64,000 bases of DNA from NCBI RefSeq assembly GCF_006345805.1, contig NC_043004.1, positions 84,072,001-84,136,000 on the forward strand. Direction: 5' to 3'. Numbering within the stretch: the stretch's first letter is position 1; each line of letters opens with the position of its first letter. Both the position numbers and the translations under genes were made by a program. Below are positions 8,101 to 28,483 of this stretch, one piece after another. Under the pieces are notes generated by a model that worked only from the letters and a program-made list of their open reading frames with translations, searched no databases and was not told the origin of the DNA. Origin of the DNA: Octopus sinensis. Its lineage: Eukaryota.

Positions 8101-9290
8101 TTTAATCAATATAGGGTAGCAAAAATTCAATAGAAATTTTTTCGCCACCAGCGGTCTAGTGAGAGAGAGAAAATAGTCAGAAACTATATATATAAATTCA
8201 ACAACAATTGAGGAACGGCCTCAAATAGGCCATTCCATCCACTAGAAAGAGCAGCCAGGACTCAAACCGCAAAGTAATAGTAATTCAGAAATTAAAGGAA
8301 AATTAAAAAACATTTACCCTAATCATCCTTAGACAATGCATTGTTTCAATGTTTTTAATGGCATACCAGCCCAATTAAATTAAATTAAACTGAATTAAGT
8401 CGATCTACCAAAGGCCACATCTCATCGGTAAAGAAGCCAGGAGAGACAGACATACACGAGGCAGTAGTATCTATGCTTCGGGAATGTCTGCCCTAAAATT
8501 TTCAAAAACTATCGTAATCGCGCCAAACTTAGCAGCAAATATAAACTGCTGATTTAATTTCAGAATTAGTCAGAAAATCATCTCTCACTAGACCGCTGGT
8601 GGCGAAAGAATTTCTATTGAATTTTTTGCTACCCTATATTGATTAATTGATGATTTTCTGACTACTTCTGAAATTAAATCAGCAGTTTATATTTGCTGCT
8701 GATAAGTTTGGCGCGATACTCCATTGACAATCTGAGGAAGCAATATCCACGTAATGGATTGTTAAAGACAATCCTGATGCCAACTGGGTTTAACTGAATA
8801 TATTGATTTTTCGTTTGTTTCAATGTTTGAGTATTATCCACATGTGGCTACTTTAGGTTGACATGTCGTCGGTAACGGTAAGTCTAAGTCGGAGTTTATA
8901 ACAGAATTTGAATAAATGGCTATGTTGATAATCAGGTTTGCGGGATGCTGTCAACATTTTAGAATAACGTAAACTAGGAGAGTTGTTAAGAGCGATGGTA
9001 CTATTATTTTCCGGATCTGATTGGGGTTCTATATAAGGATTTATATGTTCAATCCACTGCCCTCGAGGTTTACTACTATTGAGAGCAGCTATGATAGATC
9101 TAAGGTTAGGTGTGGTGGAGTATGAAAGTTTTATTGAGTGTTTATTGAAAATAGAGTAATACTTGTGCTGTGGCGGAAAGTTTGATTTTAAGATTTTAAA
9201 AGTAATTTTAGTAATGATCCAACCTGGAGGATGAAGGATGGTGTGAGCAATATGTTTACACGATTTCTGGAGGTGGACAGCGTATTTGTA
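8101..9290 (-). mobile_element. Penelope-like retroelement remnant with internal inverted duplications; 3' end abuts (TA)n
   Basis: Minus-strand translation ~9215-9075 ITKITFKILKSNFPPQHKYYSIFNKHSIKLSYSTTPNLRSIIAALN resembles the PLE RT-endonuclease linker (HFP..H....IFN...K.SYS..PN); hammerhead-like motif in the 3' part; inverted pairs 8102-8168/8581-8646 and 8517-8580/8651-8717. Confidence 0.75.
8327..8433 (-). ncRNA. Hammerhead-like motif, C4 core variant
   Basis: Minus strand: cttta-CCGATGA-gatgt...acatt-GAAACAATGCATTGTC-taagg; palindromic helix III, long loop II. Confidence 0.6.
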
Positions 9291-9828
9291 TAATCTTAAT
9301 ATATATTCTCAGTGTATTTGTATTGATATATTTGTATATTTTAATGTATTTTTAATGTATTTATATATGTATATATTTTTATTGTATATATACATATATA
9401 TATATATATATGTTTGTATGTATGTATGTATGCATATATGCATGCATGCGTGTATGTATGTATGTATGTATGATGTATATATGTATGCATGGTGGTGGAT
9501 ATATGTCAGTATTTACAAGCGTAATCCATCATGGAGAACAGATGCAAAGCCGTCTCCATCAGGATATAAACAGCCTTCTGTTGGCTTACGTATCAAAATA
9601 AACCTCAGAATAGTTACTTATACAAAAGTACAGTGACGCGCAAACTTCTTATTTCAAACTCTGTGTTTAGGTACATACATGATCTTGGGTATATTACAAA
9701 CACTGATACACACGTACATTTACAGATACAAAAAATGAAAAGATTAAAATAAATACAAACTAAAGAACTAAGAAAGCCTGTAAAAGTTACAACTAAAGAT
9801 ATAACCAAGTTTTTAAAAAAATATTTTA

Positions 9829-10085
9829 CGGAGATACACTTGCAAAGCAAGTGACCTTATCTGAGATCGTGTACTGAAATAAAAACAATTGCAGCGTGGA
9901 CTTTTTTCATAAGCAATTTAAAAACATACAAAAACCTGCTTCACCATGGAAATTTGTCATTGAACAAGTCGCGGTCTCAAACCGACGAAAATATTTTGAG
10001 AAATTAACTTGAAATGTTGAAGTGAATCTAACGTTTTTTTCTGTTTTCAAATGGTTTATAAACATCATCCATGCTGCATTTATTA
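9829..10085. mobile_element. Head-to-head pair of PLE-like end fragments (same family as 11483-11685)
   Basis: 9829-9937 aligns with 11483-11590 in the same orientation; 9953-10080 is the reverse complement of ~11545-11670. Confidence 0.7.
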
Positions 10086-11150: not shown

Positions 11151-11382
11151 GAAACCAAATTAGGACTCAAAATGAGTAAAGCTGGTTATCTTGTCATCTT
11201 CAGTTAGCTGAAGAATGAAAACTTATTAAGAGATTATGAACTTCATAGCCGCAGAAGTGATTATGTGGTAAGTGACTTAAAGAATTTAGAAGAGAAAATT
11301 ATTTATGTATATAAGTGTGTGTGTGTATACATACATATACATACATATATATACACACACACACACCACACATATATATATA

Positions 11383-11473
<91 letters not shown>

Positions 11474-11482
11474 ATATATATA

Positions 11483-11685
11483 GGGAGATGTACTCGCATA
11501 GCAAGTAATTTGATCTGAGATCGTGTGCTGAAACGAAAACAATTGCAGCGTGGAAGGTGTTTATAAGCCATTTAAGAAACACGCAAAAGCCGTTCGATTC
11601 ACTTCAACATTTAAGTTTAATTTGACAAAATATTTTCGTCGCTAAAATCCGCGACCTGTTCACTGACAAAGTCCGTGCTGCATCT
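11483..11685 (-). mobile_element. ~200-bp PLE-like end embedded in (TA)n, with variant hammerhead-like motif
   Basis: (TA)n on both sides; second copy at 9829-10085; motif at 11621-11670. Confidence 0.65.
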
Positions 11686-11689
11686 TGTT

Positions 11690-11744
<55 letters not shown>

Positions 11745-11747
11745 ATA

Positions 11748-11787
<40 letters not shown>

Positions 11788-11802
11788 ATATATATATACA
11801 TA

Positions 11803-17335: not shown

Positions 17336-17465
17336 TAGATAAACTTAGATGTGTTTCGACCAATGGTTGGTCCAGGCCATGTTTAACTTAATAGCACCAC
17401 CTGATAGGATTATTTGAATCATCCTGTTTAAGTCAAGTTTTGCTTATGGTCCATTCAAGTAGTGA
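16870..17465. repeat. ~596-bp near-perfect palindrome
   Basis: 16870-17004 = revcomp of 17331-17465 (1 mismatch seen); 17071-17170 = exact revcomp of 17191-17290; TA tracts between; ~18-20 nt central spacer. Confidence 0.95.
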
Positions 17466-18930
17466 GTTTTTGTTGGGTGAGTTGTATCCAATTATGGGTG
17501 GCTTATCTGGTATTCCTTGAAGGAATCTATCCAGACTTCGTTTAAAGTTGATGGGATCCTGTTCCTCTTTGATCTCTTTTGGGACAATGTTAAATAGGGC
17601 AGGGCTTGTTGAAGAAAAGAAATTATGTTGTAGTGTATATGTATACTGTGATCTTGAATTGGGCAGGGGACGTATGGCCCGTGGTCCCAGTCTTGGATGA
17701 ACCTTGAAGCTTATGTTCAGGTCGTTTGGGCAAAGTTGGCGGTATATTTTCCACATCGTACAAATGATGTACCGCTCACGGCGACGCTGGAGAGAGTAGA
17801 GTTTCAAGGCTTTAAGGCGATCCCAATAATCGAGAGCAGCCATGCCTTCAATTCGTTTAGTGAGTGCTCTCTGGGGTGATTGAATCCTCGAGATGTTTTG
17901 TATTGTATGGGGAGACCACAGTGGGCAGCAGTATTCGAGGTGTGGCCGTACAAAGGAGAAGAGTGGTATGATGACACCTTGTTCTCTGGACCGGAAAGTT
18001 CTTAAGATCCAGGAACTCATCCTACGAGCTATATCGACCTTCTTGTTGATGTGTGCTCTCCAACTGAGATCGTCATCAACAATTACACCTAGGTCTCTGA
18101 TGGTGTTAGCGGCTGTGAGCGGTTCCCCCGAAGGAAGAGAGTATGGCTGTTTTAGTGAGTAATTTCTTCCAAAATGCATCAGCTCAAATTTTCCCTCGTT
18201 CAGTTGCATTTTGTTTCTGTCTGCCCATTGACTCACAGCATATAGATCAGACTGGAGTTGAGTTCGGTCTGCTTCTTCATTGACGATTTGCTGGAGCTTG
18301 GTGTCATCAGCAAATATTTTCACTTTGCAGTAATGTACGACACTGGAAAGGTCGTTTATGTAGATTATGAAGAGTAGCAGACCCAAGACAGTCCCCTGGG
18401 GGACACCGCTGGTGACTTTTGCTGGGCTTGATTGGACTCCATCAACTACAACATGTTGTGTTCTATTTTCCAGGAAATACTTGATACAGTGTAGAACTTT
18501 TCCATGGATTCCAAGATTTGTCAATTTTGAGAGTAGGATATTATGGTCTACCCTGTCGAACGCTTTACTGAAGTCAAGATATATGACATCAGAGTTCGAA
18601 CCTGTTCCCAAGGCTTTGAGTACATCTTCAATGTGGTGTAAGAGCTGTGTTAGACAGTCCCTGCCACAGCGAAAGCCATGCTGATTTGCATTTAGCAGTT
18701 TCTGGGTCTCCAGGAAGTCAGCCACCCTTGATCTTAACACTCTTTCAAACACTTTGATGATGTGGGAGGTGTGTGAAATTGGGCGATAGTTGAGTGCGAG
18801 GGATCTGTTTCCGTGTTTGAAAACCGGGATGACTGACTGGGATAGAAACTGTTTCGGTATATAACCTGCATCTAACGAATTTCTCCAGAGGTTGGTCAGA
18901 GGGACTGCAAGTCGGTTCGATTTTACACAT
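17331..18930 (-). mobile_element. 5'-truncated CR1/L2-group LINE with intact 3' end
   Basis: RT ORF; 3' UTR stem-loop gaccaa-cca-ttggtc and (ATCTAAGTTT)2 tail; frame stays open upstream through LAVPLTNLW...NYRPIS. Confidence 0.92.
17433..18752 (-). CDS. Non-LTR retrotransposon reverse transcriptase, C-terminal part of ORF2 (no endonuclease; the annotated start is not the true start)
   Basis: QHGFR, YLDFSKAFDRVDH, SGVPQGTVLG, IFADDTK, RDLGV, VRPHLEY, YSLQRRRER motifs. Confidence 0.93.
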   Translation of the reverse strand: MFERVLRSRVADFLETQKLLNANQHGFRCGRDCLTQLLHHIEDVLKALGTGSNSDVIYLDFSKAFDRVDHNILLSKLTNLGIHGKVLHCIKYFLENRTQHVVVDGVQSSPAKVTSGVPQGTVLGLLLFIIYINDLSSVVHYCKVKIFADDTKLQQIVNEEADRTQLQSDLYAVSQWADRNKMQLNEGKFELMHFGRNYSLKQPYSLPSGEPLTAANTIRDLGVIVDDDLSWRAHINKKVDIARRMSSWILRTFRSREQGVIIPLFSFVRPHLEYCCPLWSPHTIQNISRIQSPQRALTKRIEGMAALDYWDRLKALKLYSLQRRRERYIICTMWKIYRQLCPNDLNISFKVHPRLGPRAIRPLPNSRSQYTYTLQHNFFSSTSPALFNIVPKEIKEEQDPINFKRSLDRFLQGIPDKPPIIGYNSPNKNSLLEWTISKT

Positions 18931-19195
18931 AAGGTATTGGAATGTTACATATATACCATTCTGTCTAAAAAATGGATCTAGAAATTCAGTATCCCTACAT
19001 ATCCCACATCTATTTTCTTTCCTCCACCTCACTCTCTATTTTGCATCCTATCTAAATTAACTATAATTTAACCATCCTCTGACACCATCTCCGATGAAGG
19101 GATATAATTAATGAATATCCTGGAAACACCTGTAAGACATTCTATCTATAAATGCTCTAATATTTACACACCCTTGTTTTTTATATCATTACGTA
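18931..19195 (+). mobile_element. PLE-like 3' end abutting (TA)n
   Basis: Pyrimidine-rich tract, hammerhead-like motif at 19088-19137, then (TA)n. Confidence 0.55.
19088..19137 (+). ncRNA. Hammerhead-like motif, C4 core variant (degenerate)
   Basis: tct-CCGATGA-agggatat...atatcctg-GAAACACCTGTA-aga. Confidence 0.55.
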
Positions 19196-24499: not shown

Positions 24500-24692
24500 A
24501 GATGTTTGATGTGAAATCGTGTGTTGAAACATATATTGTTCCATTTAGGAAGGAACTCTGGCCAAAATAAGATTAAGATTAATGTAAAAAATAAATAACG
24601 CAGAAGCAAAGTAACGCCAAATGTATAGTGCATGTGTTTTTATTGGCGAATCTGTCAAAATGACCATTCCTAAATACAACAATATATATATA

Positions 24693-25540: not shown

Positions 25541-26487
25541 GTTAGTAAGTTAGTTAGTTAATTTTTTTGCTCAAAAGCAAAAAGCAAGGCCATGTAGGGG
25601 GACATGGAGTTAAGTACAGGGTGGTGTTCATGTAAAGAGTTCAGGCCACTTGAGGTCAAGGGAGACTTTGAACAAAGCGGTCGTCGTCATCTTCACCATC
25701 TCGTCTGGCAGCTTGTTCCACGGATCCGCAACCCGGACGGGGAAAGCTCCTCTCCTTCGATTGAGATGAAATCGTCGCAGGTAGAGCTTTTCGGAATGAC
25801 CCCGCAGCCGACGATCTGGAGCAGGAGTGAAGAACAGCTCTTTCGAGAGGTTACACTTTCCGCTTATGATGTTGTGGGCGAGAATGAGATCACCACGGTG
25901 GCGGCGTTTTCTAGAGAATAAAGGTCGAGCGTCTTCAGCCTTTCTTCATAAGACAAATTCTTGAGACCATGAACCATGCGGTTAGCCAGCTTCTGCACTC
26001 TTTCGAGATGCTGTATGTCTTTGAGGAGATAAGGAGAAGAGGCTTGAATCCCGTACTCCAATATGGGTCTCACCAACGTGACATAGAGCGGTAGGAATAT
26101 GGCTGCTGTGAGCATTCCGAATGATCGTCGAATCAAGAACAGAATTCTGCGTGCTTTGTTGGCAGCATGGACGCACTGGGCCGAAGGCGAAAAGGAGGAA
26201 TCCACCAAGATACCCAGGTCCTTTACCTGATCGGTCCTCTCCAGCAGCAGACGACCCGGCTCGAAATCAAGTTGAGTTGCAGGAGGAGAGCCAACAGGCA
26301 GATGACACCATTTTGACACGTTCAGACACAGGACCCATTCGTTAGACCACCTCCAGATTTGGTGGAGGCATCGACGAAGATCCTCTATATCACCGTGAGG
26401 AGCGACCAGTTTGACATCGTCGGCAAATAGAAGGGTGTGTTGCGTGATGTCGTCGGGCAAGTCATTTATGAAGACGAAGAACAATAA
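25541..26487 (-). mobile_element. 5'-truncated CR1-group LINE with (CTAA)n-like tail; RT C-terminus frameshifted
   Basis: FINDLPD, LFADDVK, KDLGI, VRPILEY, LSYEERLKTLDLYSLE then frameshift (RRHRGDLI in the adjacent frame); gttagttagtt tail on + strand. Confidence 0.9.
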
Positions 26488-28483
26488 CAATTAATGTTAT
26501 TAATTATAGTGGCTGTATGTTATTTTAGCAAAAAAACAAATTTAGCAATATGTCGAATTTATAAAGTGATATTTTATATAAATCATATGCTGTTGTAATT
26601 TATGTACATGTAATCTTAAACTTATCACAGGTGTTTTAAGCACGTTCCATAGTAATATAGAAAGAATTGTGTCTTCTGCAAAAATATTGTAGTTATTTAT
26701 GATACTAATGGCGTTGTTTTGCATATATTCTTACTTTTTTTGGTATATTATATTATTTTGTTTCTATGTACGTTAAGATTTCTAATTTGTTAAAACTTTG
26801 TGTTGGAGCTATGTATCGTAAATTAACTCAACATTATTATTCACATAATTCCTGTTTATTAAATAGTTTTGTCATGTTTAAGTGACAAATGATATATTAT
26901 ATACACGAGAAGTACTATATTCTGAATATATTTAGATGTAAAAAATATCCACTATGTTATTAACAACTGTTTGACGTGAGATATTTTGTCTCCTTTTAAC
27001 AAGAGCTCAAGATTAGATGTTGTCAACGTGTTCTTGCAAAATAATGTTGAGTGTTGAATTTGGAGTATCATTGTTCGTGTTAACAAATGTTCCTTGTTAA
27101 AATACACTCAATATTCTGATGTTAACAAATGCTAGGTTTTAGCTGATTTTGGTAACAATAGATAATTGTTAGAAGTATATTCTATAGTATTGTCAACAGT
27201 CACTTCATTTTCGATTTATTGTTCTTGATGTTTTTAACAAGTGCTAGCTGTTAGACTTTATTGTATCTAAGCTAATTATCACAAACGATCGATGCTATAA
27301 ATTTAATACAGTATATAATTTCGTTTTCTTTGCTGTAAGTCGTATATATGATCCCCAGTACATGATATTAGTTATACACGGCCTCGTTATTTATTCGAAA
27401 ACAACTATTGCCTCTATATCAATATGGGATTTATTGATGCCAGATATGGTTTGCTCATGTATAGTCCTAGTCAGTTTTTTAAATACATTTTGTTGTATTT
27501 TTCCGATGAAAAAACAGAAGGTTCGATTGGAAAATATGGTAGTTTTCGCTAGATTTAGAAGTATTAAAAGACAATAAAGTGTACGAATTCTATGTGAATG
27601 AATGAATTCTATTTTACTGATAAATGATAATTCGTACAGTATTTTCAACAATAGCAGAATGATGCCAGTGGTCATGTGTGTAAGTATATTCTGAATAAAT
27701 ATAGAATGTTTTAATATATATTCTCTTTGCATGGCATTTAAGAAGCGCTTGTGGTACAATGTTGTTTAAATAGCATATTACTATTATTCTCCATCTTAGT
27801 ATTAAAAGATGTTGGGTGTTCATATCCAATATATTTTCTCTATTTTATTATTCAGAATGTCTGCTAGAGGGAAGTATTCTATTTAGTGTTACCAACATGT
27901 GCAACATGACGTAATTATGAACTTCATTATTTATGATGAGTTAGATCGTATTGGACTTTTATGTCTTTTTCTTAGTTCAGCGGCCATTTGGTAATATTTG
28001 TTCATGTTTATATTAAATAATAACTACATGTTAGGGAAAATGCTCAATTTAGTATACACCTTCAATACTGTAATCGTATCAGCCATGGAGTCTCTATGCT
28101 TACGTTGAGATTACAATTAATGAAATTTCTTTCATAACAGCTACGTCTCAGAGAAGATATGGTATTCGCTTGTTAAGCCAAGCACAATGTAATAAAATAA
28201 TTGTACCGGGAATATTTTAAAGAATGGTCTCCGCCGTATATAACAGAGTTGACTTCCACAACTTGTCCGATTAGCGGTTTGGTGAAAGGATATAATAGAT
28301 CTGTTAATGATTTATTGGTATTACGAGTCCAGTAACGTTGATACTAATGTGTTACCCGAATGGTCTGGCTGTTATTGTTGTGTAGCACTGAAGTCATTTC
28401 AGCACCGCTGGATGCGCAAGTGTCAAAAGGGATTCCACCCACATCCATGAATTCACTGGGCAGCAGCACGTTATACTAACCAA

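Follow-up and report, generated by a model that had tools for sequence, protein, structure and literature searches.

A natural G3:C8 hammerhead motif in a Penelope-like retroelement of Octopus sinensis

The 64,000-nucleotide stretch of Octopus sinensis DNA analysed here (the window; NC_043004.1, positions 84,072,001 to 84,136,000) carries on its minus strand, at 11670-11621, a minimal type I hammerhead motif in which the C3:G8 tertiary pair of the core is replaced by G3:C8. The motif belongs to a Penelope-like retroelement (PLE), and we are highly confident that it is homologous to the hammerheads of other PLEs. RNAs of this family probably still cut themselves, although slowly, as dimers and presumably with the help of a protein. 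We favour this active but weak reading because of published data on an anole PLE (PMC11167929) and a pairwise scan of the hammerhead core (PMC9901934), in the parts of both papers that were accessible. For the 3:8 tertiary pair, of which the papers covered give C:G and U:A as natural forms, the family would add G:C, and it illustrates how standard descriptors overlook whole high-copy ribozyme families. It also bears on the question of whether PLE hammerheads must cut at all, with two abundant sister families in one genome displaying G3:C8, canonical and A9C cores.

The motif and its host element

The motif had been described in an initial annotation of the window, and both its placement and its letters were reproduced. 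It is comprised of the following parts:

11664-11670, minus strand: 5' strand of stem I (from sequence; pairing probability 0.64-0.89 in the family leader)
11657-11663, minus strand: core positions 3-9, GUGAACA, with G3 at 11663 and C8 at 11658 (from sequence, genome copies and relatives)
11656, minus strand: additional nucleotide after position 9 and before 10.1, here G (from sequence)
11638-11655, minus strand: stem II, 5 bp, including G10.1-C11.1, with strands 11655-11651 and 11642-11638 (pairing probability 1.0)
11643-11650, minus strand: variable loop of stem II
11637-11635, minus strand: G12-A13-A14 (GAA; from sequence)
11634-11629, minus strand: palindromic helix III, AAUAUU, A15.1 to U16.1 (from sequence)
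11628, minus strand: U17, with the predicted cut between 11628 and 11627 (from hammerhead numbering)
11621-11627, minus strand: 3' strand of stem I, in which an A>T change at 11625 is private to this copy (from comparison with other copies)

The geometry is that of a minimal type I hammerhead, as had been proposed, with stems I and II around the core and the G10.1-C11.1 pair present. The residues U4, G5, A6, A9, G12, A13, A14, A15.1-U16.1 and H17 of the PLE minimal type I hammerhead were all found. The core departs from canonical CUGANGA precisely as claimed, with G3:C8 replacing C3:G8 and a Watson-Crick pair thereby kept at 3:8, and it does so family-wide. Stem I has the layout described, but its pairing is not perfect in the window copy, where there is a U-U mismatch at 11625; the stem is a perfect 7 bp in 28 of the 29 other top copies. 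The annotation had also pointed to one more base after A9, to a helix III that is a palindrome and to the cleavage triplet ending in U17. They are all present, but are standard in published PLE minimal hammerheads (min-HHRs). The extra base is G in six of the seven families of the clade.

A descriptor allowing any Watson-Crick pair at 3:8 matched the window only at the 11670-11621 site, and produced one match in 60 dinucleotide-matched simulated windows. The folding z-score of the window motif was -1.54, which is weak evidence by itself. The Rfam covariance models gave no hammerhead match at E-values up to 10, and no hammerhead was among the 150 of 374 matches listed in the Rfam scan of the window. 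The expectation that searches of the CUGANGA type overlook this family was borne out, and Rfam misses it as well.

The surroundings of the motif identify its host as a PLE, represented in the window by a solo pseudo-LTR:

11484-11685, minus strand: solo pseudo-LTR and tail, 202 bp (99% identity to the 3' end of L061)
11685, minus strand: putative start of transcription at the leading A of AGAUGC, with the predicted cut 58 nt downstream (from copy 5' ends)
11484-11571, minus strand: first part of the ORF of the element (ATG at 11571; MAYKHLPR...), with the optional tail within it at ~11484-11537 (in-frame ATG in L164 and L169)
11686-11690, minus strand: five nucleotides at the 5' junction that may be left over from an inverted copy (equal to the first letters of inverted copies; too short for certainty)
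11690-11802: (TA)n target tract, upstream side
11372-11482: (TA)n target tract, downstream side
9830-10084: second copy of the family, older (~81%) and arranged head-to-head, in which the core has decayed to UUGAACA

The window copy shares 99% identity with L061, an intact element, at the 3' end of the latter, and no RT or EN coding sequence was found in the window by tblastn with the element protein. It is a dead insertion, and its stem I carries the mismatch noted above. The element has a single ORF (839-aa and 1,042-aa frames were recovered) with RT followed by a C-terminal GIY-YIG domain. The RT motifs DVVSLYP, GGAIG and YVDD, together with CxxC, GTVY..YIG and CCHH, were identified by eye. 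The ORF has 102 homologues, among them proteins named reverse transcriptase. The closest of those with a name comes from Octopus vulgaris (58%), and PF00078 or PF26215 was found in distant homologues; the element ORF itself had no direct match in Pfam or PDB. Pseudo-LTR, inverted 5' copies, optional tail and microsatellite targets, the features of an EN+ PLE, were all found. The linker spacing appears Nematis-like, as judged by eye.

The leader ATG lies 56 nt past the predicted cut and continues in frame into RT in L164 and L169, which places the motif in the 5' leader on the sense strand. The element carries a second motif ~1 kb behind its stop codon, and in 34 of 52 stretches, some of them overlapping loci, the motif was found on the coding strand 0.3-1.4 kb 3' of the EN stop. 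A genome search with the pseudo-LTR returned 1,279 candidates. Head-to-head inverted partial copies made up 15 of the 40 top matches scored from these and 61 of 100 unbiased copies, and the inverted copies stop near query position 152. A non-LTR retrozyme was rejected as the host, the window copy being a solo copy derived from a coding PLE rather than a member of non-coding tandem repeats.

Several other features were noted. In L177-L181, short pseudo-LTR copies lie clustered in arrays of up to about ten, in both orientations, and such arrays could place several hammerheads within one transcript. In the window, 8518-8716 forms a near-perfect long inverted repeat of ~200 bp that is MITE-like and scored only as a spurious microRNA match. 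A 151-aa frame fragment at 8856-9308 (minus strand) may correspond to the region that links RT and EN in a different group of PLEs, and two frames of LINE-type reverse transcriptase, with 503 and 208 aa, lie at 17436-18944 and 25867-26490, both on the minus strand.

Variation within the family and between families

The core pattern matched the genome 8,630 times, compared to 86 times for a reversed control, and 5,817 copies have the exact G3:C8 core. Position 3 deviates in 216 family copies, the first 100 of which, as listed, include no C3:G8, and position 8 deviates in 380. Counted by eye, 42 of the first 100 rows listed for position 8 were G3.G8, which extrapolates to ~160 copies. Among the rows listed at 2% from DNA-type contigs (four runs with four organism codes; the older subfamily breaks at loop II, which makes the result weak), there was no G3 or C8 variant.

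The G3.G8 copies were considered as a sublineage that might be a counter-example or an intermediate, and this was rejected. G8 is scattered (12 changes for 13 rows, on a poorly resolved tree) and occurs in every subfamily background; furthermore, all five head-to-head pairs that contain G8 have a C8 partner. We observed that C8>G is about four times commoner than G3>C (~160 vs. ~35, extrapolated by eye from the first 100 rows), and that the state of position 8 can change from one half to the other of one and the same inverted insertion. Position 8 may be a site-specific hotspot of reverse-transcription error.

Conservation was measured in 100 copies chosen through a downstream anchor, which matches the genome 9,356 times, with positions scored as polymorphic above 10% and CpG excluded. 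In this young family, 0 of 10 core positions and 10 of 114 flanking positions were polymorphic (p = 1.0, 100 copies), along with 1 of 18 stem positions, at which a wobble pair is retained, and 0 of 4 in helix III. Loop II was polymorphic at 5 of 7 non-CpG positions, against 1 of 35 in the remainder of the motif (p = 0.00014, a value inflated by a loop indel). The motif minus the loop did not differ significantly from the flanks (p = 0.46), and neither did the core. With so young a family, it is the comparison between families that carries weight.

A sister family in the same genome has the hammerhead in the same register, with C3-U-G-A-U-G8 and an extra G. Its stem II is nearly identical to that of the G3:C8 family, with one compensatory pair change. 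Eleven further relatives were found in metagenomes, of which eight included the 3' sequence; the hammerhead was there in five and no motif was found in three. As parsed by eye or by pattern, L122, L124 and L129 are C3:G8 (the L129 motif being degenerate), while L123 and L126 are U3:A8. Thus, all seven families have a Watson-Crick pair at 3:8 (G3:C8 in one, C3:G8 in four and U3:A8 in two), which by reshuffling would occur 1 time in 105, a figure that ignores relatedness. The stems and helix III differ in sequence among the families, and helix III is a perfect palindrome in six of the seven. U4, G5, A6, G12, A13, A14, A15.1 and U16.1 are identical in both octopus-type families despite changes in stem I and helix III.

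In a protein tree of 20 rows (L128, which has no frame, was dropped), the G3:C8 family is sister to the C3:G8 family with a support of 100/100. Since the related families are all C3:G8 or U3:A8, G3:C8 is most likely a derived compensatory swap, as judged from these sequences. No third family of the G3:C8 clade was found in the genome, and no relatives of the element were found in the viral contigs searched.

The sister family is itself abundant, with 3,357 anchor matches (L133-L162, L349-L398). Its common form has A9C (50 of 58 matches) and an imperfect helix III, whereas an older-looking form has a canonical CUGAUGA core with C17; A9 was present in 4 of 30 unbiased copies. The spread of this family with A9C implies that drift in the core did not halt its amplification. 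Across the clade, the core variants comprise G3:C8, U3:A8, C9, A5, U15.1:A16.1, G15.1:C16.1 and the extra-base G. Individual examples are a core with U15.1:A16.1 at L122 4965-5015 and U3:A8 with C9 at L123 2489-2538, while L129, from 2350, combines A5, G15.1:C16.1 and a stem II that is vestigial. In L126, a complete element has a motif with U3:A8 and A17 at either end (14-57 and from 3424). The window also contains a head-to-head fragment of the sister family, at 24505-24685, that starts inside its hammerhead. Two protein models, P0094 and P0095, fuse a piece of the sister ORF to host-looking exons. These fusions are probably annotation artefacts, or possibly exonisation.

Transcripts, insertions and the question of cleavage

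Sixteen of 100 unbiased copies begin at AGAUGC, and 12 of these are preceded by an extra G (p = 3e-6 at 20% G), which suggests that insertions are copied from capped, uncut RNA. As a point against cleavage, 95 of the 100 reach upstream of the predicted cut. Three begin exactly at the cut, but all are inversions, for which microhomology in stem I is an equally good explanation. In the sister family, ~3 of 30 starts fall within one base of the cut site, as judged by eye, and these too are all at inversion junctions. Such starts were consequently not counted as evidence, and there is no clear cut-site signal in the genomic 5' ends of the 100 unbiased copies. The pseudo-LTR is also covered by contigs from four presumed RNA runs, a type of contig that lacks end and strand information.

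Directly before the putative start, L061 8980-9001 has a branch-point-like ACTAAC, a pyrimidine tract and AG, a combination that could serve in splicing, as a 3' splice site, or as an initiator, or in both ways. No spliced exon joined at this ACTAAC/AG site was seen in the copy 5' ends or the presumed-RNA contigs.

In the mechanism that we favour, a capped transcript would start in the pseudo-LTR, upstream of the cut. Stem II would form firmly and stem I mostly, and two motifs would pair through their AAUAUU palindromes to form helix III. Cleavage after U17 would be slow and probably aided by a protein of the element, leading to decapping of mRNA or to trimming of tandem transcripts. Most of the RNA would be left uncut, and its reverse transcription into (TA)n targets would begin at a position inside the tail; an internal start of this kind would generate solo copies of ~200 bp like that in the window. 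The computed energies do not favour the double-hammerhead dimer, which has -27.2 kcal/mol, compared to -31.3 for the best alternative dimer and 2 x -14.7 for two monomers. Activity is also argued against by the extra G, which lies outside the published consensus, by the A9C form of the sister family and by a core no more strongly conserved, at a significant level, than the flanks.

It is quite possible, although not what we consider probable, that cleavage is absent or negligible, and that the fold was kept for another purpose, such as binding of the PLE protein or shaping of the template for RT, with the 3:8 pair having a structural role only. The 95 of 100 insertions from uncut RNA are what such a fold would predict, as are the success of the sister family with A9C and the C9, A5, U15.1:A16.1 and G15.1:C16.1 cores of the relatives. 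In the anole PLE, ribozyme mutants left insertion in vitro unaffected, and none of the RNA-seq reads had its end at the cut (PMC11167929, accessible parts). However, the eight core letters shared by the two octopus-type families, in the face of a changed stem I and helix III, are harder to reconcile with a fold that has lost its activity, and the swap that is present is the very one that rescues catalysis in vitro.

We consider it improbable that the conserved letters represent an internal RNA polymerase II promoter and that the resemblance to a hammerhead is an ancestral leftover. The core does lie 23-29 nt 3' of the putative start, which has an initiator-like context, and PLE promoters reside in the pseudo-LTR (PMC6765202, accessible part). 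Such a promoter would nevertheless leave the paired stems, the palindromes of varied sequence and the Watson-Crick covariation at 3:8 unexplained, and the distance between start and core is not the same in all subfamilies, varying by one base. That AT-rich repeat DNA took on a hammerhead-like arrangement by chance, with which the weak folding z-score and the missing Rfam match would agree, is highly improbable given the single descriptor match per 60 simulated windows, and is largely refuted by positional homology, since the sister family, L122 and L124 have canonical hammerheads in the corresponding place.

Returning to a weakly active hammerhead, a broader and more doubtful proposal can be made. 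The G3:C8 motif might be an evolved, attenuated and protein-gated ribozyme, through which some transcripts would be processed while most of the capped RNA is spared as mRNA and template. The clade would then constitute a natural series of core mutagenesis that is overlooked by CUGANGA searches, and many elements considered "ribozyme-free" may carry active variants.

Comparison with known systems

The pseudo-LTR is the known site of PLE hammerheads (PMC4209133; here and below, the comparisons refer to the accessible parts of the cited papers). The octopus motif resembles the min-HHRs described there by Cervera and de la Pena (2014) in being a type I hammerhead in the pseudo-LTR with an extra base and G10.1-C11.1, in its palindromic helix III and its NUH triplet (U17 included), and in its thousands of solo copies. 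It differs in having G3:C8 rather than C3:G8 and a longer stem I of 7 bp. In addition, the extra base is G, whereas the consensus CUGANGAH in the supplement to that paper has H (not G). The sole natural 3:8 covariation given in the parts of PMC4209133 covered is U3-A8, and no octopus entry was found in the searchable parts of its supplement.

The U3-A8 variants of Perreault et al. (2011) are likewise a natural compensatory change at 3:8, although they represent a transition-type swap, whereas G3:C8 requires two transversions (PMC3088659). The same source describes U15.1-A16.1 variants, such as that of the relative L122. The element as a whole is similar to the Nematis and Neptune EN+ PLEs of Craig et al. 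(2021) (PMC8557442), with which it shares RT, a C-terminal GIY-YIG, a CxxC linker and CCHH, as well as tandem and inverted insertions, a tail and (TA)n targets. With its short linker spacing it looks, by eye, like the Nematis rows in supplementary figure S2 of that paper.

The closest functional parallel is the anole Poseidon element PAc (Frangieh et al. 2024, PMC11167929). In its hammerhead, C3G/G8C partly restored cutting, which needed protein, and insertion used an uncut RNA template with an internal start. C3G/G8C was also the only rescuing core double mutant in the full pairwise scan (PMC9901934). Like PAc, the octopus element has its hammerhead near the start of the ORF, a tail with internal initiation of reverse transcription, and an uncut RNA template. 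Unlike PAc, it has a CxxC linker and an ORF that starts after the ribozyme rather than inside it, and the swap, made in the laboratory in PAc, is the natural state of the family.

As an engineered mutant, G3:C8 appears in PMC11167929, PMC9901934 and PMC3884650. A natural G3:C8 hammerhead was not found in the published literature covered, to which the survey of Lunse, Weinberg and Breaker (2017) did not belong. The natural form may already be in print, as that survey could include it. It is reportedly the largest survey of PLE hammerheads, and is said to contain ~150,000 variants. Based on the comparisons above, the octopus family is likely the natural form of a weakly self-cutting variant that is otherwise known as a laboratory mutant.
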